NCBI GenBank assembly: GCA_965215885.1
Contig: CBDCEW010000096.1
Coordinates: forward strand, 32,001-96,000
Length of the DNA: 64,000 nucleotides
Direction: 5' to 3'
Origin: Candidatus Moanibacter sp.
GTDB lineage: Bacteria > Verrucomicrobiota > Verrucomicrobiia > Opitutales > UBA2987
Part shown: positions 8,245-31,537 of the stretch, piece by piece
Position numbering within the stretch: position 1 is the first letter of the stretch
How the letters are laid out: each line of letters opens with the position of its first letter
Translations under genes and position numbers: made by a program
The notes under the pieces: model-generated
Database searches by the model: none
Told to the model about the DNA's origin: nothing
What the model saw: the letters and a program-made list of their open reading frames with translations, nothing else

Positions 8245-8419
8245 ATACCTGTTTTGCGTGTCTTTGATTGATGGCTGCCCTGGTCTTTTTCGCCTCGGCG
8301 AAGCCTCGCGCGAAGACGGGTGCCGAGGTGGAGCGCGTTCCCTGCTATGAACGGAATACCTCTACCAAGCCTTCCCCCGGCACAAGACCGGTTCAGCCTC
8401 AGAAACGTTAGACGCGTAC
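8245..8419. mobile_element. MITE family A (arms GTACCTGTTTAGC...GGCTGCCCCGGTCTTGTGCCGGGG), decayed copy
   Basis: Inverted arms related to those at 26773-28397, 58346-58391 and 63268-63320. Confidence 0.65.
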
Positions 8420-8435
8420 ACCCCGGGGATTGCGG

Positions 8436-8617
8436 CTAGCCCGGACATTTCACACACTTCGTAGCGAGACGGCGTAGATTGCTGCCTGTCAATGCCTTTC
8501 CGCAGAACGGCGGGCGACAGTGTGTTGAGACCCTCTGAGGTCGCCGGGCAAGGCAAGGCATTGACACGCGGCGAGATCCGTCGTCGTAGTAGAAGGTTTG
8601 TGAAATGTTCGGGCTAG
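8436..8617. mobile_element. MITE family B, 182 bp, terminal IR CTAGCCCGGACATTTCACA
   Basis: Terminal inverted repeats; same-length copy at 26574-26755; half-end at about 19933. Confidence 0.85.
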
Positions 8618-8665
8618 TCCCGGATCAGCCGAGACTCATCTCAGGCATTTGCGGGGCAGATTTGC

Positions 8666-8764
8666 TAGGAAGATGTCGGTGGTGAAATCGGCCCCGATCC
8701 ACGAACGCACATAAAGAGCAGGTCCCCACCGAAGAATCGCAAAGCGAGATCCGACAGATTCCTA
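8666..8764. repeat. REP/MITE family C with arms TAGGAATCTGTCGGA; contains an empty IS110 target
   Basis: taggaagatgtcgg at 8666 is inverted relative to tccgacagattccta at 8750-8764. Confidence 0.7.
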
Positions 8765-11206
8765 AAAACTATAAGTGACCGAAAACCTCGCATGCATCGG
8801 CAAACCGACCGCCAGGAGATCCCCATAACTCGCCGTCTGCAGATTCGAGTTGAACGTCTTCTCATCGAAGAGATTCAGCAAGTCCGTTTTGAATCGCCAC
8901 GGCCCCTTCTCATAAAAAAGAGAGAGATTGACGATCAGCTGATCACCAATCCTGATGCTGTCAACCATATCGAAATCATACGCTCCCTGCCACTGGGGTC
9001 CTCCGGCTATCCCGAACCCATTCTCAAATGCGTAGAGAAAATAGGCATTGAAGTAGAATAACGGAATGCCACTGTGCCGGATGTTCTGACGTCCGGGAGG
9101 AACTCCAAAAAAGGTCGTGAATCCAAGATCGTCAGCGATAATATCCGTACCGAATCCCAGCGGTGAAAGAATCACACCGGTGAGGGGATCGGGAAAGTCG
9201 ATCAGGGTTGCGTCCTGGTAGGTGAAATTGGCTACCATCCAGAATCGCTCGCCCGGTTGATAAGTCAGGTCCATTTCGAAACCCTCGACTTCGAGGTTGT
9301 CCGGCGCGGTCCCGAGAAAATTCAGCCGCACGCGCTCCTGATGGTAAGCCGCGAAGGTGAGAAGTAAGTCGTCCTTTATCGCATATTTTAGTCCCACTTC
9401 CCACAGCTCCGAGTTCGCATTCCATACTTCTCCTCCAAGGCCCTCCTCCGGGTTCCAGATAAGCCCGCCCACAAAAACGTTACCGACCAGCGTATGATTT
9501 TTCTGATAAGTGAAATACACGCTCAATTCTTCCTTTGGGCGGTAAACCAGGCTACCAGATAACGTCCACCAGAACGTTTCATCCTTGGCGGCAGCATCGC
9601 CTACAAATGGCACGGGTCCGGGAAGCGGATTTTCGATTTCACCCCATCCGTAGTCGCCCCGAGCGCTCGCATAAATGGTGAGCTTTTCTTCATAGAGTTC
9701 AATCTTGTGATTGTGAAAGAAACCGATCGTCTTGAGCGTGTCTTCCGATGTATTGAAGTTGTTGGGAAAATCAGCGCCCCCCGCTTCCGCCGTCTGGCTG
9801 GGCTTTTTGGGTATAACCACCTCGGCAAACTCGTTGAAAGTAGGAAACGGTATTCCTAGTTCCTGGCGTCGAATATCCCAATTGCGGCCCGTAGCCGGGT
9901 CCAATGTGAGATCGAAGATATTCCAGTGCTCGGCAAAGAACCGGTGGTAACTCTCATTGAAGTTATAGCGAAACGATACTCCGGTCGTGGTCTCCTGAGA
10001 GTAAGTTCCCTTTCCTCCAAAATTTCCCTGTAACTCGAATCGATTCTCAAAGACCCAGTCGTTCGGGACGTATTCGATATAGTTGTACTCGAAAACGTCG
10101 ATGTAGGTATTCCACTCCAGATAGGTGTGGTTAACCAGGGTCATATTGTCGTTAAGCTCGTAGGTCGCCTTCAAATGTCCCGTTACATTCACTCCCCTGT
10201 CCTGATCGTCGGGATCGCTGACCTGGCGCCACGGCTCGATCTTGACTTCCGTCGCGAGAGCCGCCGGCAAAATATACCCGCCCAGAATGTCTCCGAAAGG
10301 TGTGGGAATTAATATCGGAAAAGGTTGGCCGCTGAGATAGGTGAAATCGTCCACCAGATCCTGAGTCGGCCGGTTCAACCCGGTTACCGGGACCCACTCC
10401 TCGTAGTAAACCTCAGCGCTGAAATCGAGGCGAAACCTGTTGCTCGGACGCCAGGTAAGCGCGGTATAAAGAGCAAAATTGTCGGTTCCCGAAAACTCAT
10501 GCCATCCATCGGAAAGTTGCCCCGTGAAGCTCACACGGTATGCCAGCTGATCGCTGAAGGGTCCCCCTGCATCAAGTGTGAAGCTGTAATCATCCCAGCC
10601 CCGACCATCAGAAGAGATGTTACCAAAACGTGCGCCGACCGAACCGCGAAACTTATCAAAATAGGGCTTTTTTGTCGTATAATTGATATACCCACCGGTG
10701 TAACTTGAAACTCCCAAATTGGCGGGTGCCGGACCTTTTACGATTTCAATATTCTCTACCCCATTGAAGTTTGTGGGACCGGCGCTCTGCTGAAAAAATC
10801 GACGCATCCCATTCTGGTAGGCCTCCGATAAATCAGCTCTTACGAACGGCGTGCCTTGGAAACCGAAAGAGGTCACTACCCCGATTCCGGAGGAGAATTG
10901 TCGGATGTCTTCGACTAATTCGATCCCGAAAATCTCCATCTGCTCACCCGTTACAATCGCCATGGACCGAGGGATGTTAAAAACCTCGTCTGCGAAACCA
11001 TAGGTTGAACTGATTGGTTTGTCAGTGGGCACGATCATGGCCGATTGCAGGTTTTCGATGATGACATATTCACCAAGCTCCTCAATTTCCTCCTTGTCTT
11101 CCTGAGCATTCGCGCTCATCGCGAAAACAAATACGCCAACTGCGGCAATAGATATTAATCGCTTTGTCGGCGACAAATTATGATGTGTTAATTTCGCTTC
11201 TTTCAT
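8762..11206 (-). CDS. TonB-dependent receptor
   Basis: Signal peptide, plug motif (VENIEIVKGPA..GGYINYTTKKP), NLFDE and C-terminal VTYSF; start MKEAK with AAGAGG RBS. Confidence 0.92.
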   Translation of the reverse strand: MKEAKLTHHNLSPTKRLISIAAVGVFVFAMSANAQEDKEEIEELGEYVIIENLQSAMIVPTDKPISSTYGFADEVFNIPRSMAIVTGEQMEIFGIELVEDIRQFSSGIGVVTSFGFQGTPFVRADLSEAYQNGMRRFFQQSAGPTNFNGVENIEIVKGPAPANLGVSSYTGGYINYTTKKPYFDKFRGSVGARFGNISSDGRGWDDYSFTLDAGGPFSDQLAYRVSFTGQLSDGWHEFSGTDNFALYTALTWRPSNRFRLDFSAEVYYEEWVPVTGLNRPTQDLVDDFTYLSGQPFPILIPTPFGDILGGYILPAALATEVKIEPWRQVSDPDDQDRGVNVTGHLKATYELNDNMTLVNHTYLEWNTYIDVFEYNYIEYVPNDWVFENRFELQGNFGGKGTYSQETTTGVSFRYNFNESYHRFFAEHWNIFDLTLDPATGRNWDIRRQELGIPFPTFNEFAEVVIPKKPSQTAEAGGADFPNNFNTSEDTLKTIGFFHNHKIELYEEKLTIYASARGDYGWGEIENPLPGPVPFVGDAAAKDETFWWTLSGSLVYRPKEELSVYFTYQKNHTLVGNVFVGGLIWNPEEGLGGEVWNANSELWEVGLKYAIKDDLLLTFAAYHQERVRLNFLGTAPDNLEVEGFEMDLTYQPGERFWMVANFTYQDATLIDFPDPLTGVILSPLGFGTDIIADDLGFTTFFGVPPGRQNIRHSGIPLFYFNAYFLYAFENGFGIAGGPQWQGAYDFDMVDSIRIGDQLIVNLSLFYEKGPWRFKTDLLNLFDEKTFNSNLQTASYGDLLAVGLPMHARFSVTYSF

Positions 11207-11409
11207 TGTAATAAATCCTCTTCTTTTGGGTGGTTTCAAATGTGATTTTGCTTTCTGTATTTGCACTCCTTCTACGGGACGCGCTTTGCAAGAGCGTGCT
11301 CTGGCAACGTTAAGGTGGTAAACCACGACCTATTTTTCGCTCTCAGAATAGTTACGCAAGAGTGAATTCTATTCAGCTTATAGCAAATTAATCGCGAGCT
11401 GAAGGTTGG

Positions 11410-19354: not shown

Positions 19355-19978
19355 GGCTGATCCTCCAATCGCAGATACATGTCGATGATCGGGGGCTTTT
19401 CATCCGCCTCCCCATTGCCAATCGCACACCAGATTATGTTCAAAACCAAACAAATTTCCCGTGTTCGTTTCATCTTACCCATTTCTCCTTTGATCAACAG
19501 AACTGCAACAGCGCATCGAGACAAGCAAGGACCAATCGAACCGGCCTTCGATTCTTTAGATTCTATGTTCGTATTTCGGCGAAATACGAACAAACACCTG
19601 AAACGCTCAAACAGAAGATCCTTCCGATCGGTCAGATAGCCGCGTATGCCTGAACTTTCAGGCCTGACGGCTTCAAGTCAGCGGAGTCCCGGTGCGCACG
19701 ACGCGGCCCGATCAAACAGGGGTGAAACTTGCGGCGTCCAGGAAGACGAAAAGCTTCCGCTTTCCGCGACACCCTTCGAGCCGGATAGTAGTAGCGGAAA
19801 GCGGAAGCTTCTCGTCCCTGTTGCCACCCAATTAAGCCATTATAAGCCGCCCGCCAACCAGTTAATTACCGTAAGACTGTCGAACGGCATGGACATTAAA
19901 GCTCCAAGTCAAATTGGCCGATGCAACCCGAGCTAGCCCGAACATCTCACTACCGATTCCGCATCAGCGACAGACATC

Positions 19979-21226
19979 CTAGAGATTTCCCGACTCCTGG
20001 GTAAACCGTACCGGCATCCTCTTAATACCACCGTGGTGATAGGAGAGCAGGCGCTCAGGCGGTGCGGTTACTTCGATGTCGGGGAGGCGCCGGAATAAAT
20101 CCGTGAAAAGGATGCGCATCTCCAGTTCCGCCAACCTCGCCCCGACACAGAAATGCTGGCCGGCCCCAAATGCGAGATGGGTGGGCCCTTCGCGCGTCAT
20201 GTCAAACTTGAATGGATCTTCGAATATCTCTTCGTCCCGGTTTCCTGAAAGGTACCACAGGACAACTTTGTCTCCCTGCCGAATTTTCTTTCCCCGGATT
20301 TCCGTATCTGCGATCGCTGTGCGCCTCATATAATATACCGGTGTCACCCATCGGAGAATCTCATTTACCGCTCCTGTAACGAGGGAGGGGTCATCGAGAA
20401 GCCGTTGGCGTTGGTCGGGGTTTTCCGATAGGGCAAGAAGCCCACCGGAGATGCCGTTGCGGGTCGTTTCGTTTCCCCCAACCATGAGAAGAATGAACAT
20501 GGCGAGATAGCGTGATTGGCTCATCACTTCATCTTCAACCTTGGTATGAACCATCAGCGAAATTAGATCATCACCTGGATTTTCGAGCCGATCGTTCCAC
20601 AGACTCATGGCGTATTCTCCCATTGGCCTGTACAACTCATCGAGTCCCCCTTTATCGGCTATGATCTCCGGATCGAACTCGCCCACGACAATGTCGGTCC
20701 ACTCCAGCAGTTTATGGCGCTCTTCCTGCGGCATTCCGAAGAGATCCGCCAATACCTGTACCGGAAGTTCCTTGGAGACGCACTCCACGAAATCGCACTC
20801 GCCCCTCTCCGCGATCTGATCGATCAGGAACGTAACTCTGGTCTGAATCGGTTCCTCGAATCCATGCACCCGCCTCGGCGCGAATGCCGGAGCCACCACT
20901 TTTCGATGCTTGTTATGTTCCGGAGGATCCATGTTGAGGAGTTGGTAATCCTGGTTGCCGATTGTATCCGTCGGCACGTCCTGTAGAAAGAATCCGCCGT
21001 ACTTCAAATCAGATGAGAATTCCTTCGGATTCTTAGAAACGGCCGTGATGTCTTCGTACTTCGTGATCGACCAATATCCACGGCCGCTCTCTTCCTGCGT
21101 CCAGTGCACCGGATCTTCACTTCTCAAACGCGCGAAGATCTGGTGAATCGTATCATCGAGATACAACTCCGGATCAGCCAGACATACTTGATCGAGATTT
21201 AGCTCTTTTACTTTTTTAGAGATCAT
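19979..21226 (-). CDS. Cytochrome P450 (CYP125/124/142-like)
   Basis: GGNETT I-helix, EILR ExxR motif, and HLAFGAGQHFCVG heme site. Confidence 0.93.
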   Translation of the reverse strand: MISKKVKELNLDQVCLADPELYLDDTIHQIFARLRSEDPVHWTQEESGRGYWSITKYEDITAVSKNPKEFSSDLKYGGFFLQDVPTDTIGNQDYQLLNMDPPEHNKHRKVVAPAFAPRRVHGFEEPIQTRVTFLIDQIAERGECDFVECVSKELPVQVLADLFGMPQEERHKLLEWTDIVVGEFDPEIIADKGGLDELYRPMGEYAMSLWNDRLENPGDDLISLMVHTKVEDEVMSQSRYLAMFILLMVGGNETTRNGISGGLLALSENPDQRQRLLDDPSLVTGAVNEILRWVTPVYYMRRTAIADTEIRGKKIRQGDKVVLWYLSGNRDEEIFEDPFKFDMTREGPTHLAFGAGQHFCVGARLAELEMRILFTDLFRRLPDIEVTAPPERLLSYHHGGIKRMPVRFTQESGNL

Positions 21227-25092: not shown

Positions 25093-26526
25093 GTGACATC
25101 TCGACGGGATTTCATAAAATTGACCGGATTAATTGTTTCCAGCATGGCTTTCCCCGCGATCGACTCTAAGTCGGGATTAGTTAAGAGTAGACCGAATATC
25201 CTCTGGATTCATGTGGACGATATTTCTCCCCACACGAGCTGTTACGGGGAGACGGCAATAGAGACGCCTAATATCGACCGTCTGGCACGGGAAGGCGTGC
25301 TCTTCAGAAATGCATTTTCAACCTCACCGGTATGTTCTCCGGCCCGTTCGGCGTTGATCACGGGGATGTACCAGACTTCGATTAATGCTCAGCATCATCG
25401 TTCCTATCGCTATAAAGTGAAAAATGAGCTGCCCGAGTTCGTTGAAACGCTACCCCGGACGTTTCAAAACCATGGATACTATACCGTCCTGGCTCATGTA
25501 CAACATCCAGCCAAACAGCGATATTTTCCGGCAAATCCGAAGAACCTGGGAAAATCAGACTACAATTTTGAGTGGGATACCGAGATCTACGATTCAGGTG
25601 GCTCTCCCGGACTGCAGTTCAATGATTGGAAGGGCTGGACTCCCGATAATCCATTCTTCGCGCAGGTGCAACTGCGAGGGGGGAAATGCCGACCAAAAGA
25701 CATCGCGGATAGCATCAACCGGAAAAGCATCCGATACCCTCCCTATTATCCCCACCATCCGATTCTTAGCGAGCGTTGGGCCGATTACCTCGCGTCTTTA
25801 ATCCATCTCGACAAGGAAGTAGGTCTGATTCTGGATCAATTGGAATCCCGCGGTCTCAAGGAAAGCACGGTAGTCTTCTTCTTCTCGGATCACGGTCTCG
25901 AGCATATTCGACACAAGCAGAGCCTCTATGACGGCGGCATCCAAATTCCTCTGATCGTACGATGGCCGGCAACCGTGACGCCGGACACAAGACGGTCCGA
26001 TCCAGTCCTTCAGATCGATATCGCGGCATCTTCTCTGGAAGCGGCAGGTATACCAATTCCCGCACGTATGGAAGGCGTTCCCCTATTCGGAGCCAACTCT
26101 CGCACACGAGAATTTATCGTTGCGGCACGCGATCGCAGCGGAGCAGATATCGACCGGATACGCTGTGTTCGCACCGAACGGTTTAAGTACATTCGTAATT
26201 TCCACCCGAACAAACCGTATTTTGAAAATAGCAACTACATGTATAACAGACGCATGTCGAAGGTCATGCGAGAGCTACACGAAGCAGAGAAACTTGATTC
26301 CGTACAAGCGGCGTTTATAGGGCCGCATCGACCTGCTGAGGAATTGTATGATCTGCAGGTTGATCCATACGAGGTGCATAATCTGGCCAAAAGTCAAAAA
26401 TGGCGCAAACTCCTTGCCGACATGAGGAAAATCCTGACTGAATGGATCTGTCAAACCGGTGATATGGGCCAGCATCCAGAGCGCAGGGACGAGATCGACG
26501 AAAATACATGGTACCACCGCACATGA
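25093..26526 (+). CDS. Sulfatase with Tat signal
   Basis: SRRDFIK, PNILWIHVDD, CSPARSALITG and SDHG motifs. Confidence 0.92.
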   Translation: MTSRRDFIKLTGLIVSSMAFPAIDSKSGLVKSRPNILWIHVDDISPHTSCYGETAIETPNIDRLAREGVLFRNAFSTSPVCSPARSALITGMYQTSINAQHHRSYRYKVKNELPEFVETLPRTFQNHGYYTVLAHVQHPAKQRYFPANPKNLGKSDYNFEWDTEIYDSGGSPGLQFNDWKGWTPDNPFFAQVQLRGGKCRPKDIADSINRKSIRYPPYYPHHPILSERWADYLASLIHLDKEVGLILDQLESRGLKESTVVFFFSDHGLEHIRHKQSLYDGGIQIPLIVRWPATVTPDTRRSDPVLQIDIAASSLEAAGIPIPARMEGVPLFGANSRTREFIVAARDRSGADIDRIRCVRTERFKYIRNFHPNKPYFENSNYMYNRRMSKVMRELHEAEKLDSVQAAFIGPHRPAEELYDLQVDPYEVHNLAKSQKWRKLLADMRKILTEWICQTGDMGQHPERRDEIDENTWYHRT

Positions 26527-26573
26527 AACGTCTTCGCGCACAGAAAACACCGAAGATCTCAAAGATTCTCGGG

Positions 26574-26755
26574 CTAGCCCGGACATTTCACACACATCGT
26601 AGCGAGATCGCGTAGCTTGCTGGGAATCAATGCCCTATCGCAGTCCGGCGGGCGACAGCGTGTTAGAACCTTCTGAGGTCGCGGGACAAGAGAAGGCTTT
26701 GAGACGCAGTGAGATCCGCGATCGCAGCAGATGGTTTGTGAAATGTCCGGGCTAG
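26574..26755. mobile_element. MITE family B, copy 2 (182 bp)
   Basis: Perfect terminal IR ctagcccggacatttcaca; collinear with 8436-8617. Confidence 0.87.
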
Positions 26756-26972
26756 GAATTTGCCGGACGTTAGTACGTGTGTAGCGTGATTTGAAGCTGC
26801 CCCGGTCTTGCGCCGGGGTGCCGCACGTTTTACAGCTACAATCAGTCAATGGCACCGCGCTTACCCTCCGCCCCTTCTCGCCCCAGTGCGCCCGGACTGG
26901 GGCGAGAAGGGGCGGAGGGCATGGAAGCATCCGGTGTATAGCAAGAAGCGTGCACCACCCCGGCGCAAGACC

Positions 26973-28346
26973 CATAAGCGCTAACTTGTTTGCTGACCTG
27001 GGAATCTGACCTCTAACTGTGGTCGGCGTTGCCGTGGAGACTCTGCTAAGCCTTGAGCTATATCGTTCCAATTTTCTATCACTTGTCGCAAAGGCACAGC
27101 GGGATCGACGGCCCGCTGGAGTTGATGGAAGACGAAGGCAAACTCACGCCATCGACTCTGCTGTTTTTTCCGGCTCCAGGACATATCCCCAGGGGGAAAT
27201 AGAGATCGCACTTTGAATGATCTTCTCGGTGATCAGGGCCGCGAAGAGCTTGCCATAGAGCCACGCCTTGGCGCTTTCATCGTCATACTTAGGCAGATGT
27301 CCTAACTGTGCGATCTGTTTGAATCGTTTGAAGACCAGTTCCACCTGCCAGCGGATACGATACCATTCGAGCACCTCCAGTGCGGAAAAGAGCGATTCAG
27401 GAAAAGTCGTCAGCACCATGACGTATTCGGCGTAATAGAGCGTTTCGGGCATCAGCTTCTCGCCCCGCCTGCTGGCGATTCGCCGCAATCTCTTGTGGGC
27501 CATGGCGATCGCTTGCTCGCTTTTGCGGATGGCACACACCCGCGCTGGCAACGGGGGCTGATCCGATGCGGGCACCATGACTGGCCAAGCGCCCACCTTG
27601 CCACCGGCCCCGATCTGCTCCAGGCAGGCGGTCAGGTTCAGAACCTCTCCCCGAGGATCGAGCAGCCGTATGTTGTGCGGTGCCAGCCGTATACTTACAA
27701 AAGCCCCTTGGGAGGCTGCATATTGAAGCCCGGAAGCCTGGCAGTATCCCCGATCGGCGATCACGTAGTCACCTGCTGCCAGCGGAAACTGTCTAAGCGA
27801 CTCGCCGGTGCCTTCACCTTGCGCTGGCGTAAGTTTGAAAAAATCGCACGCCATCGAAGGAACTCGCAAGCTATAGTGCACACGCCACAAGCTGCCCGTC
27901 TTCCCGGGTTCCTTCACCATCGTCGCATCGATCAGACGAAACTCCCGTTGCCCCACCGCCCCCAAATCCAGGCCACGCTCGCGAAACAATGCCACGCACA
28001 GCGAATAAAGCCAGTCCTTGCACTTGCGCAGCCGCTTCAGCAACGCTACGTCTGACAGTTCCGCCAACTGCGCCTGGCGCGCACGCACCACGGTTTCGCG
28101 CAGCGAATACCCACATGCCAGGTGCACCATCAGAATCCTCAGCAACTTCCCAGGTGCCTTGTCCCGGCGCAATCCCTTCAACGCGTTGGTCTTCTTAGCC
28201 AATTCTTTCCATTGCGGCGGGAAAAAAGACATCAGCACGCTCCAGTCTTCATCCATCATGGTCGACCTCCCTTCAATTCTGCTAACCTGTTGCGGAAGTC
28301 CACAGCAGGAAATGCACTATGTCAAGCAAACAAGTTAGCGCTTATG
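26973..28346 (-). mobile_element. IS4-family element
   Basis: IR cataagcgctaacttgtttgct; 11-bp TSD ggcgcaagacc at 26962-26972 and 28347-28357. Confidence 0.92.
27144..28259 (-). CDS. IS4 transposase
   Basis: LIDAT, IADRGY and YRIRWQVELVFKRFK motifs. Confidence 0.92.
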   Translation of the reverse strand: MMDEDWSVLMSFFPPQWKELAKKTNALKGLRRDKAPGKLLRILMVHLACGYSLRETVVRARQAQLAELSDVALLKRLRKCKDWLYSLCVALFRERGLDLGAVGQREFRLIDATMVKEPGKTGSLWRVHYSLRVPSMACDFFKLTPAQGEGTGESLRQFPLAAGDYVIADRGYCQASGLQYAASQGAFVSIRLAPHNIRLLDPRGEVLNLTACLEQIGAGGKVGAWPVMVPASDQPPLPARVCAIRKSEQAIAMAHKRLRRIASRRGEKLMPETLYYAEYVMVLTTFPESLFSALEVLEWYRIRWQVELVFKRFKQIAQLGHLPKYDDESAKAWLYGKLFAALITEKIIQSAISISPWGYVLEPEKTAESMA

Positions 28347-28430
28347 GGCGCAAGACCGGGGCAGCCGGCAATCGAATGCAGGACGCTAAACAGGTACGGA
28401 CGTTACGTCCGACAGAAAACTGAGGTAGTC

Positions 28431-28436
28431 CGTCAA
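28431..28436 (-). promoter_or_regulatory. -35 box TTGACG of the IS110 circle-junction promoter
   Basis: Lies 17 bp from the -10 TATAGT (30110-30115) only when the ends are joined at the core. Confidence 0.8.
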
Positions 28437-28467
28437 GGGATTTTTTGAGTTTTTTCTCATGTTGTGT

Positions 28468-29778
28468 TTACAAGGCGTTGGCATTTGCTTGCTGAAGTCT
28501 TTTCCACACCGGTGAACCGGTGCGTTGGAGCGATTGGAGATACTTTTGCTCATCGTAGCGTTCGCTATTTTGCCAACAGCGAAACAGAATGCGGGTCCAC
28601 TTGAGAGCGAGGGCACGAAGAATGGTTTGGCGGGGTTTGCCCTGTTCTTTTTTGATCTGGTAAAAGGCCTTTGCCCAGGCACAGTTTCGGATCGAATGTT
28701 CGGCAAATTCAACGAAACTTTGCCGCACGAAGGTAGGAGCCGCCCACCGCCAGTTGACCATTCGTTTCGGTTGTCCGGTTCTTTTGTCCTGCCCGCTGTT
28801 GATCGTGACCGGAGCGGATCCATTCCACTGGGTCATGTTCTGGGCCGTTTCGAAGTGCGAACGATCGGTCCCGAACGCGCACAGCAACCGGGGACTCATG
28901 ACCTCGCCGGCTCCGGGAATGCCACTGAACACGGCTGCATCGGGATGGCTTCTGAATAGCTCCCTGATACGCTTCTCATACGCTTTGATCTGCGGGCACA
29001 GGGTCAAAAGCTGTCCGGCCAACGTCTGTGCTTTTCTGCTGGATGCTTCAATGATGGCTGCATCTTCGGTCAAGGCTCGTGCGTTACCGATCAATTCGAG
29101 ACGCTCCTGGATTTTGGCGTCACTGCGACAGTTGTGCTTATAGAAGAACTTTCGCAAGACACCCTCCGATGCTCTGTGCAGCTTCTTGAGGGTCGGCCAA
29201 CGCAATATAAAGTGCAGGCACAGGCCACTGCCTAGATCATCGAACAATTTCAAGACCAAAGGGTTATATTGCTTCAGACAACTGCCCAACTGCTGTTCGA
29301 GGCTGGTAGCCTGATCGACGAATCCACGGCGGTCCTCGCACAACAGGTTCAGCTCCCGTGTTTGGGCCGTGTCAGGTATGAAACATTTGGTAAAAAGCTC
29401 GGGATGTTTGAGGAAAAACTCCGCGTGTATTTGCGCATCGACCGGGTCGCTCTTGGCCCCTGATGGATACAGCGCCCGGCGATAATCCTTCGCCCTGGCC
29501 GCATGCACTGGATAGATATCGACAAACTCCAAGCCCATCAGAAAGTTGATCAACCCTCCTCGCTTCTGGTCCACCACCATGGCCATGCGCTTGCCCACGC
29601 TGGCATACTTTTCTCTCATCTCTACGGCAAATTCGTGCAAGCTGACCGCATCCTGCGCCACCTGTCGATGGGTCCCTTTTCCCGTTTCGCTCTCTATGAT
29701 CCACAGATCGTTTTTCTGATCCGCCCAATCAATTCCTATCACCACACTATATCGATTTGTTTTTTCCCTTTTCTGCAT
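28468..29778 (-). CDS. IS110 DEDD recombinase/transposase
   Basis: GIDWAD, KSDPVDA, IPGAG and APVTINSG (catalytic Ser region). Confidence 0.93.
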   Translation of the reverse strand: MQKREKTNRYSVVIGIDWADQKNDLWIIESETGKGTHRQVAQDAVSLHEFAVEMREKYASVGKRMAMVVDQKRGGLINFLMGLEFVDIYPVHAARAKDYRRALYPSGAKSDPVDAQIHAEFFLKHPELFTKCFIPDTAQTRELNLLCEDRRGFVDQATSLEQQLGSCLKQYNPLVLKLFDDLGSGLCLHFILRWPTLKKLHRASEGVLRKFFYKHNCRSDAKIQERLELIGNARALTEDAAIIEASSRKAQTLAGQLLTLCPQIKAYEKRIRELFRSHPDAAVFSGIPGAGEVMSPRLLCAFGTDRSHFETAQNMTQWNGSAPVTINSGQDKRTGQPKRMVNWRWAAPTFVRQSFVEFAEHSIRNCAWAKAFYQIKKEQGKPRQTILRALALKWTRILFRCWQNSERYDEQKYLQSLQRTGSPVWKRLQQANANAL

Positions 29779-29820
29779 CCCTTTGTTCCTTTAGTTTGTC
29801 TTTTTGCTTTTTTCAAAGGC

Positions 29821-30103
29821 ACTGGATGTCCAGGCGAAGTCCTTATAGTTGGATCCTGTTATGAGGATGTAAACTGAGTGTTCGTTTTCGGTCATCCAGG
29901 CAGGCCGTCCACTCGAAATTCTGTCGGAAGTCCTCTTCGGACTGATTCCTAAGTTCGTAGTGGACGGCTGCCTTTGAATATTTTCACCCTTAGCCAAACA
30001 ATCTCTTTGACCCATCGCCAACCACTGATCGGCCAAGTTATTCACAAAGGGGCCTCGCCGAGTTTTTCCTGCGGCTCCACTCGGCCCCTTGGATGAATAA
30101 CCT
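29821..30103 (-). ncRNA. IS110 bridge RNA: 5' hairpin, target-binding loop and donor-binding loop
   Basis: Three stem-loops whose internal-loop strands match the target and donor junctions (see findings). Confidence 0.88.
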
Positions 30104-30121
30104 GGAGCTACTATAAGATTC

Positions 30122-31270
30122 CTATGGCATTCCAAGCTCCTGACAGAAGGTATTAAAGGGGAGAATGCGTTGTCCCGTTTCTTCGTCACCAAAGTCGTTA
30201 TGACCGATGTGAACGAAGAAGAAACGGGGAATGTCGGTGCGTTGTCTGAAGTATTCAAACCTTGAGGAAGCTTTGGATTCGTTGAGCTTGCATTCTACAG
30301 CGAACTCAGCCTTCCCATCTCTTAATACGACAAAGTCGACTTCTCGTCTATCCGTATCACGGATGAAGCGAAGCTCCATTTCGAAGCCTTCTGTGTCTTC
30401 GATGTAACAGCAGTACTTTAGCAGTTGGCAGGCCACGAGATTTTCAAAACGGGCGCCCGCGTCGGATACTCGAGTCCAATCCCAGAAATAGAGCTTGTTC
30501 TCTTTCTTAACCGCACGGATCTTCTTGTGACCAAAGGGAGGAATACGGAAGACTGTATAGAGCCGCTCCAATATCGAGATCCAGCTCTCTATTGTTTCAT
30601 GGGCTACCCCTAACAGAAGACTGATCGAACGAATCGACAGAGGCGACCCAACACATTCAGGTAGATGATTAAGGAGGAGTTCGATTTTGGATACGTCACG
30701 CACCTGCTCCAATTCTCGCAGATCGTCATACACGACTCTTGCCGTGTATTCACGTAACCATCGTCTATGAAATCTGGCAGTCGCTCTAAATAGTGGTTCG
30801 GGAAACCCTCCAAATGATAGTAGCTGCTCCAGGTCGGAAATGGTAGGGCTTCGAGTGAGTTCCATGAGCGAGAGCGGGAAAAGCCTGAGAAAATGGTAAC
30901 GACCCTGAAGCGAATCACCACCTCTTCGATAGTAGTCGAGACGCGCCGAGCCGGTAACCAGAAATGAGATTTTGCTCTTATGTTTGTCGTAGTACCCCTT
31001 GACTAGATTTCGCCAACCTCCGAATTTGTGAATTTCGTCAAATATGACCAATGGCTGCTTCGATGGTAGATGGCCGTCGAGAATGCGCTTTCGGTCAGCC
31101 AGCGAATCCCAGCTGAGGTAGGCAGGATGAGATTCTTTTGCGTTTTCCGGCCGGAGACATTGCAGGGCCAAGGTTGTCTTACCCACTTGGCGTGGCCCTC
31201 CCACAATGACCATTCTGTTTTCCAAATCGGCTTTGACTGCTTCCAAGAGATATCTCTTAACTGGAATCAT
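30122..31270 (-). CDS. AAA_14 ATPase with DUF4143 domain
   Basis: GPRQVGKTT, FDEIH, TGS..DSLQGR, GGFPE and EVDFV...VECK motifs. Confidence 0.92.
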   Translation of the reverse strand: MIPVKRYLLEAVKADLENRMVIVGGPRQVGKTTLALQCLRPENAKESHPAYLSWDSLADRKRILDGHLPSKQPLVIFDEIHKFGGWRNLVKGYYDKHKSKISFLVTGSARLDYYRRGGDSLQGRYHFLRLFPLSLMELTRSPTISDLEQLLSFGGFPEPLFRATARFHRRWLREYTARVVYDDLRELEQVRDVSKIELLLNHLPECVGSPLSIRSISLLLGVAHETIESWISILERLYTVFRIPPFGHKKIRAVKKENKLYFWDWTRVSDAGARFENLVACQLLKYCCYIEDTEGFEMELRFIRDTDRREVDFVVLRDGKAEFAVECKLNESKASSRFEYFRQRTDIPRFFFVHIGHNDFGDEETGQRILPFNTFCQELGMP

Positions 31271-31537
31271 AGTATGAGTAATTTCGAAACCACTCTAAGA
31301 TACTCATGAGTAATTTAGAGTAAAGTCTAAAATACCCATGCTATCCATCTGTGCAGACCCTGGAAGAGTTATGTTCTCGGGGTCTGCCAGAGATCGTCGA
31401 ATCGGAAGCCTGTCCTGAGCCAGTCGAATGAATAAACCCCTTTCCCGGCCTGAGCTTGTCGAAGGCCTACACGTGTGGCGGATGATAACGGCACTTGCGC
31501 TTACTGACCGGCAACCTCAATTTCATCGGATCGAGCC

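Follow-up and report, generated by a model that had tools for sequence, protein, structure and literature searches.

An IS110-family element probably guided by a predicted bridge RNA to the arms of a multicopy palindromic repeat

In the window, which is the whole stretch of 64,000 nucleotides analysed here, the 15-mer tccgacagattccta occurs exactly at 8750-8764, where it forms the right-hand arm of an inverted-repeat element of 99 bp. The same 15-mer is obtained at a second place when the flanks of an IS110-family insertion are joined via one AG. This raises the question of what brings the insertion sequence to a palindromic repeat, and of why that repeat overlaps stop codons. The features of the window that bear on both points are collected in Table 1.

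Table 1. Features of the empty and the occupied repeat in the window
Feature	Position	Strand	Basis or remark
Palindromic MITE-like repeat element, 99 bp, main size class	8666..8764	.	arm search
Unoccupied IS110 target TAGGAATCT-GTCGGA	8750..8764	-	CT core 8757-8756; both predicted bridge-RNA target guides match
TonB-dependent-receptor-like gene; stop is first triplet of repeat arm	8762..11326	-	Plug, TIGR01783
Left arm TAGGAATTTGCCGGAC of 37-bp hairpin element; loop GTTAC split by IS4 element	26753..26768	+	arm search
IS4-family element in hairpin loop; transposase ORF 27144..28259(-)	26773..28397	-	NF033592 131.6 bits, cut-off 115
Right-target half CT-GTCGGAC	28407..28415	-	flank reading
IS110-family element of 1700 bp, duplicated CT core excluded; terminal inverted repeats absent	28416..30115	-	10 copies, flank divergence
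TTGACG in right end	28431..28436	-	17 nt upstream of TATAGT (30115-30110) if circularised
IS110 recombinase gene, 436 aa: DEDD_Tnp_IS110 + Transposase_20	28468..29778	-	Pfam
Predicted bridge RNA core, two internal loops, upstream of recombinase gene in left end	29812..29978	-	fold
Left-target half TAGGAAT-CT; TAG 30124-30122 is ATPase gene stop	30116..30124	-	flank reading
AAA_14/DUF4143 ATPase gene, co-oriented with IS110, stop is the arm's TAG (cta 30122-30124)	30122..31270	-	domain matches

The empty site and its repeat family

The preliminary description had placed the 15-mer at 8750-8764 within an inverted repeat, and this arm was found to pair with 8666-8679 (14-nt inverted repeat, 86% complementary, 71 nt between). 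The degenerate left arm, taken as 8666-8680, departs from the 15-mer at 3 positions, and the right arm is exact. Read on the minus strand, the 15-mer is TAGGAATCTGTCGGA. Its TAG at 8764-8762, cta on the plus strand, terminates the TonB-like ORF 8762..11326, whose protein ends in ...SVTYSF with F as the last residue. The Plug domain of this protein scored 23.2 bits, just under the Pfam cut-off of 23.9, and the match to TIGR01783 was partial and below cut-off. The TAG had been said to act as a stop at both sites, and it does so likewise for the ATPase ORF 30122..31270 at the occupied one. A looser variant reported after the P450 stop at 19979 turned out to be weak, being motif-like given one indel; it is absent from the arm listing because it has more than 3 ungapped mismatches. 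Behind that stop, 19925-19981 was observed to hold a degenerate arm (reverse complement TAGGATGTCTGTCGC) followed by CTAGCCCGAACATCTCAC, a terminus like that of a 185-bp repeat described below. This arm is apparently too diverged to be an IS110 target.

The host genome (G000) has 6.36 Mb in a 90% complete assembly. In it the 15-mer, proposed earlier to be a multicopy sequence, is abundant, with 124 exact copies versus 0.011 expected. At one mismatch 165 copies were observed versus 0.49 expected, and at two mismatches 206 versus 10.5. This abundance far exceeds chance. The inner 13-mer AGGAATCTGTCGG (AGGAAT-CT-GTCGG) has 256 intact genome copies, and the form [TC]AGGAATCTGTCGG[AT] has 171.

Allowing up to 2 mismatches, 495 arms were found, of which 236 form 118 convergent pairs. 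The between-arm spacings of these pairs are sharply grouped: 7 nt in 20 pairs, 36-37 nt in 10, 59-60 nt in 11 and 67-69 nt in 58 of the 118. The elements thereby defined have sizes of about 37, 67, 90 and 99 bp, all with one common 16-bp terminus. The element at 8666-8764 is a member of the 99-bp class, that of the 67-69 nt spacing. With its small size and its terminal inverted repeats (16-bp arms, 118 convergent pairs), the family is MITE-like. No recurrent spacing of convergent arms between 0.4 and 5 kb, as expected for an autonomous IS with the same termini, was detected in the genome apart from that caused by IS110. An IS630-like element (DDE_3) was considered as the mobilising partner and rejected, both of its copies being without the repeat termini. 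A link to RAYT was discarded as well: of 29 Y1_Tnp matches none has arms on both sides, and the two with an arm within 2.5 kb lie about 2 kb off. The 29 Y1 transposase matches themselves comprise 9 IS200-like copies of 152 aa, almost identical to one another, and about 20 proteins that are longer and diverged.

Other small repeats adjoin the family. A palindromic repeat of about 185 bp is present at 8436-8620 and 26560-26752, the complementarity of its arms 8436-8501 and 8552-8617 being 74%. The genome contains many copies of it, and copies of 89-92% identity occur in a genome of another genus of the same family (G006). Its end reads ...CCGGGCTAG, and it is often adjacent to GGAATCTGTCGG arms. 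It may represent a structured RNA or else a second family of MITEs. When orthologous DNA of 8300-9500 was sought among 40 relatives as an empty-site comparison, none was found; the neighbouring 185-bp repeat alone gave matches, and these in G006 alone. At L039:2364-2620 of G006, an inverted-repeat element (AGAAAATGAAACTGAG ... CTCAGTTTCATTTTCT) adjoins a 67-bp element, and its start also comes after arms of the host genome at C79:77992, C94:47830 and C104:121726. This neighbourhood points to what look like nested small repeats. The space between two genes of like orientation at C84:3112-3209 (L045) is taken up by a 99-bp element, whose first TAG serves as stop codon for the gene upstream; 9 nt past its last base there is an ATG.

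The IS110-family element and its predicted bridge RNA

On the plus strand, the 1700-bp element is flanked by GTCCGAC-AG and AG-ATTCCTA. The occupied site had been described as the right arm of a hairpin whose left arm starts at 26753. Both arms are present, but a 1.6-kb IS4-family element that had gone unmentioned lies between them, bounded by the 8-bp duplication GGACGTTA at 26765-26772 and 28398-28405. Without both insertions, the site becomes a 37-bp hairpin of 16 + 5 + 16 nt. The repeat family has also been struck by a second, unrelated IS, in the loop. The terminal-repeat core of the IS4-family element was seen at 110 ends in the genome, mostly in short derivatives; other palindromes (ctgccgtacggcag, cccggcaagccggg) adjoin many of these ends, and GGAATCTGTCGG arms adjoin about a dozen, which suggests a loop-seeking IS.

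Public data were inspected as Logan contigs of 4 runs from 3 studies, placed on 25800-31400; their depths are sums over organisms and were left unused as copy numbers. In these contigs the IS110 element appears as a separate unitig, and loose ends match other known flanks (junctions of C84 and C102). None of the 4 runs has a contig that bridges the element, and therefore an empty allele of the occupied site was not seen.

BLAST searches of the host genome returned 10 full copies at 99.8-100% identity, plus a 211-bp fragment and, where contig C84 begins, a partial copy with the same junction as the full copy on that contig. The recombinase scored above the Pfam cut-offs for both domains (PF01548, 64.5 bits, cut-off 29; PF02371, 38 bits, cut-off 21.3). 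The NCBIfam model NF033542 gave 119.2 bits, below its cut-off of 140 though aligned over positions 1-341 of 343; the protein is a divergent IS110 family member. It matched the IS621 and ISCro4 structures weakly. A search of genome_contigs for related loci, based on the recombinase, returned no relative. Among 301 genomes of the phylum, the search gave only relatives of at most 41% identity, in 8 other genomes.

A CT core is present at both junctions in all 10 copies of the host genome and in all 16 intact copies of G006. Nine of the 10 full copies lie in [T/C]AGGAATCT-GTCGG[A/T] (YAGGAATCT-GTCGGW), and AGGAAT-CT-GTCGG is common to these nine. The question posed earlier, whether other copies sit in unrelated sequence, was thereby answered: 8 of the 9 other full copies share the motif of the window. 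In the orientation of the IS, the left flank is TAGGAATCT (TAGG) in 6 copies and CAGGAATCT (CAGG) in 3, and the right flank is GTCGGAC in 6, GTCGGTC in 2 and GTCGGAA in 1. On-target copies directly behind a long open frame number 2 of 9 in the host genome and 5 of 16 in G006, the same pattern as for the arms generally.

The tenth copy, C84:54652-56355 (L022), was found at CAGTTTACT-TATGGGG. Its site (...CTCAGTTTACT-TATGG..) fits the guides of the predicted donor loop (loop 2), not those of loop 1, and resembles the element's own donor junction. This copy would fit a donor-like off-target event, consistent with the same mechanism. C84:1-491 repeats the junction of this copy, and at C84:52017 the gene tail of C84:3112 is found again in inverted orientation. 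The beginning of the contig thus has the look of an inverted copy of 52-56 kb, perhaps produced by the assembly.

The termini of the element, TATAGTAGC... and ...CTCAGTTTT, are unlike the repeat arms. If the ends were joined in a presumed circular form, TTGACG-17-TATAGT would make up a promoter across the RE-LE junction. The bases of TTGACG are also present in the element of G006. A promoter rebuilt across this junction is described as a principle of IS110 elements in the report on IS621 (PMC11208160).

The left end is predicted to contain a two-loop bridge RNA. Folding of 29978-29812 gave -66 kcal/mol versus -37 ± 3.9 for shuffled sequences (z -7.5), and none of 200 shuffles was as stable. 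In the target loop (loop 1, minus strand), the LTG TAGGAATC lies on the 5' side at 29951-29944 and the RTG TCCGACAGA on the 3' side at 29928-29920, around an inner stem at 29942-29930 of 4 bp (GTCC/GGAC). The 5' side equals the top strand TAGGAATC and the 3' side is the complement of TCTGTCGGA, so this one loop spells both target halves, UAGGAAUC and UCCGACAGA. The LTG is imperfect beside the core, where the guide ends in A and the target has T. In loop 2, the LDG CTCAGTTTAC (29878-29869) and the RDG CTATAAG (29848-29842) correspond to the two ends of the element, the right one (...CTCAGTTTT-CT) and the left one (CT-TATAG...). In bridge RNAs of the IS621 type both guides take in the core, as reported in PMC11208160. 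Comparison with the fold of the G006 sister, in a 2-sequence alignment, revealed 2 compensatory base pairs. An Rfam scan of 28300-30300 with E up to 1 found no family. The bridge RNA had been proposed to be programmed against a multicopy palindrome; LTG and RTG can be read directly, and both the sites and the sister guide agree with this proposal as far as sequence goes.

Further evidence was provided by G006 (8.3 Mb), the one genome among the 40 relatives in which both the repeat and the IS are present. It holds 734 arms at up to 1 mismatch, and its recombinase, with 27 matches, is 79-80% identical. Nineteen loci in which the recombinase match is full-length or nearly so were taken; 3 are truncated at the left end and 16 are intact. 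Fifteen of the intact copies lie in TAGGAGTCT-GTCGGAC, one in TAGGAGGCT-GTCGGAC and none in TAGGAATCT. The G006 LTG is TAGGAGGC, with UAGGAGGC in place of the host version, and the RTG TCCGACAGA is unchanged. The exact 15-mer variants occur 222 times (AAT), 198 times (AGT) and 50 times (AGG) in G006, versus 124, 4 and 1 times in the host genome. By simple arithmetic, the chance that 16 random choices all miss AAT is p about 4e-5. At position 6 the guide has therefore changed in step with the arms that are used, and the sister element represents a case of natural retargeting, to a variant of this repeat that differs by one base. No such agreement holds at position 7: the G006 LTG has G, 15 of the 16 sites have T, and the 50 perfectly matching AGG sites carry a single copy. 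Both elements also lack a match at the base adjoining the core. Judging from these guides and sites, simple pairing does not predict the reading of every loop base.

Targeting, stop codons and alternative readings

The proposed mechanism can be put as follows. The left end of the element (28416-30115, minus strand) would encode a bridge RNA whose target loop would be complementary to both halves of AGGAAT-CT-GTCGG, and this sequence forms the terminal inverted repeat in a palindromic MITE-like family of about 500 arms. Such complementarity would lead to recombination at the CT core inside the arms, and since the guide would spell the palindrome end, the element would land there almost every time. 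It is very probable that the element is guided in this way to the multicopy arms by its own bridge RNA; RNA-guided recombination is here deduced from the guides and the sites. The sequence at 8750-8764 would then be one of roughly 170-250 unoccupied targets.

Since the targets are palindrome arms, the recombinase might instead read the palindrome by protein-DNA contacts or by DNA structure (hairpin or cruciform), the complementary stretches of the left end being incidental or auxiliary. A stem-loop encoded by the target is reported in a 2026 preprint to add specificity for ISPpu10 (10.64898/2026.03.19.712850), and the mismatch of the G006 LTG at position 7 with most of its sites would be in line with this reading. 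However, the occupied arms have very different distances to their partners, some being without an obvious partner arm, so there is no constant hairpin to be read, and the co-change of guide and sites at position 6 between both elements also argues against it. Recognition of the palindrome without a guide is thus considered improbable. A motif copy inside the element, at 29937-29951, could hint that the arms are debris of IS110 (solo ends or footprints) and that their co-location is trivial. Yet this copy is the guide itself, split by a stem; the termini of the IS differ from the arms; about 500 arms stand against 10 IS copies; and the arms build inverted-repeat elements of their own, of 37-99 bp and in 118 pairs. 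An origin of the arms from IS110 therefore has hardly any likelihood left.

Guidance by the bridge RNA leaves the position of the repeat itself to be explained. The palindromes had been claimed to sit just after genes, at stop codons, and this was borne out genome-wide: 108 of 329 TAG-starting arms terminate an open frame of 150 codons or more; the two remaining frames give 3 and 13, and among 4260 random TAGs 111 (2.6%) do so. Five genes with such an overlap were compared with relatives without the element, and 4 of them end at the same residue. The infB-like and the sodA-like genes of the host keep the same last residue in all 8 family members, with one sodA orthologue off by a residue, and the stops of the relatives are TAA or TGA. 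The first of three G006 genes shares its last residue with two congeners, where the TAG is native; the second ends as its host orthologue, and the third has a variable C-terminus. From this comparison, the TAG of the arm is usually at the native stop position. The repeat family, which has a high copy number in two genera, thus provides more than 100 genes with a stop in its native place.

The chances are even that the repeat inserts at the TA of TAA or TAG stops, its own next G rebuilding TAG, without selection for a hairpin behind genes. The frame bias and the conserved ends, with a native TAG in the congeners in one case, speak for this idea. A within-genome search for empty sites with joined flanks gave two usable comparisons, both versus the paralogous site C83:55244-55302, and the paralogous empty site ...C-TA-G... 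against the occupied C-TA-[GGAAT...ATTTC]-TA-G is also in its favour. The downstream flank of one G006 element was compared with congeners, and no alignment was obtained. On the other hand, when arms were selected by the inner 12-mer, A was kept in 445 of 504 arms and T in 313 of 504 only. The end dinucleotides are unequal in many pairs (AAA/TAG 11 times, CTA/TTG 7 times), so a strict TA duplication fails. The variable C-terminus in one of the five genes, and the failure to find an autonomous element with these inverted repeats, also count against insertion at TA.

A wider reading would link both points. The repeat would be aimed at stops, with its own TAG replacing the native stop of more than 100 genes, and IS110 would exploit this geometry, its bridge RNA and recombinase being expressed by read-through. 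As the target is asymmetric, insertions behind such genes would be co-oriented with them. The insertion would split the hairpin between gene and IS, and transcription of the host gene would cover the bridge RNA and the recombinase as long as the element is integrated. If true, read-through would give the weak expression needed for excision, which is beyond the reach of the split junction promoter. This wider reading as a whole is regarded as unlikely. As regards the preferred reading, guidance by the bridge RNA, an insertion leaves TAGGAATCT joined to the gene, so that the coding sequence is untouched, and we infer that the landing sites are neutral or 'safe'.

Comparison with known systems

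In every feature that can be tested by sequence, the element appears to work like IS621. According to the report on this E. coli element (PMC11208160), which has Choi 2003 among its references, its natural targets lie in multicopy REP palindromes, and it shares with the present element the DEDD and Tnp domains, the CT core, and the left-end RNA with target- and donor-binding loops and the promoter across the RE-LE junction, the last two being predicted here. Unlike IS621, with a protein of 328 aa, the recombinase has 436 aa, and the two proteins match weakly, in the C-terminal domain only (E 1.7e-4). The left end is longer here, about 340 bp, as is the right target guide with 9 nt. The lineage differs as well, and what is targeted is the terminal repeat of a MITE-like family.

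REP sequences have long been recognised as targets of IS110 elements, as reported in PMC11208160, PMC1525189 and 10.64898/2026.03.19.712850. Elements described as inserting into REP include ISPpu10, ISPa11, ISPpu9, ISPsy8 and ISRm19/22 (PMC1525189; 10.64898/2026.03.19.712850). As in these accounts of the ISPpu10 group, the present insertions are found in identical intergenic copies of a palindromic repeat, outside coding regions, often in convergent pairs. In contrast to that group, a third of the TAG-starting arms overlap a stop codon here. No constant 5' stem-loop was seen beside the target, unlike for ISPpu10, and the repeat has no RAYT association. By analogy with IS621 and ISPpu10 at REP, this way of targeting is already known, and the known picture of IS110 would be unchanged. 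One IS110/IS1111-type element is reported to target a different mobile element at its terminal inverted repeat. There the target is a large transposon, whereas here it is a miniature, non-autonomous repeat in hundreds of copies.

The repeat itself resembles RUP, Correia/NEMIS and ERIC in being short, in having terminal inverted repeats and hundreds of copies, and in adjoining genes. MIRUs overlap the stop and start codons of flanking genes. RUP is reported to insert at TA (PMC2229807). Unlike in bacterial MITEs and REP-like repeats, no partner transposase was found here and the end dinucleotides are not a clean duplication. One 16-bp terminus is used over at least four size classes, which differs from RUP, Correia and ERIC. 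The case offers a clean natural example of what would be bridge-RNA targeting outside the proteobacterial model elements, with a guide that can be read against roughly 250 genomic sites. To the known systems it adds a natural retargeting pair and a repeat family overlapping stop codons, the latter possibly of wider interest.
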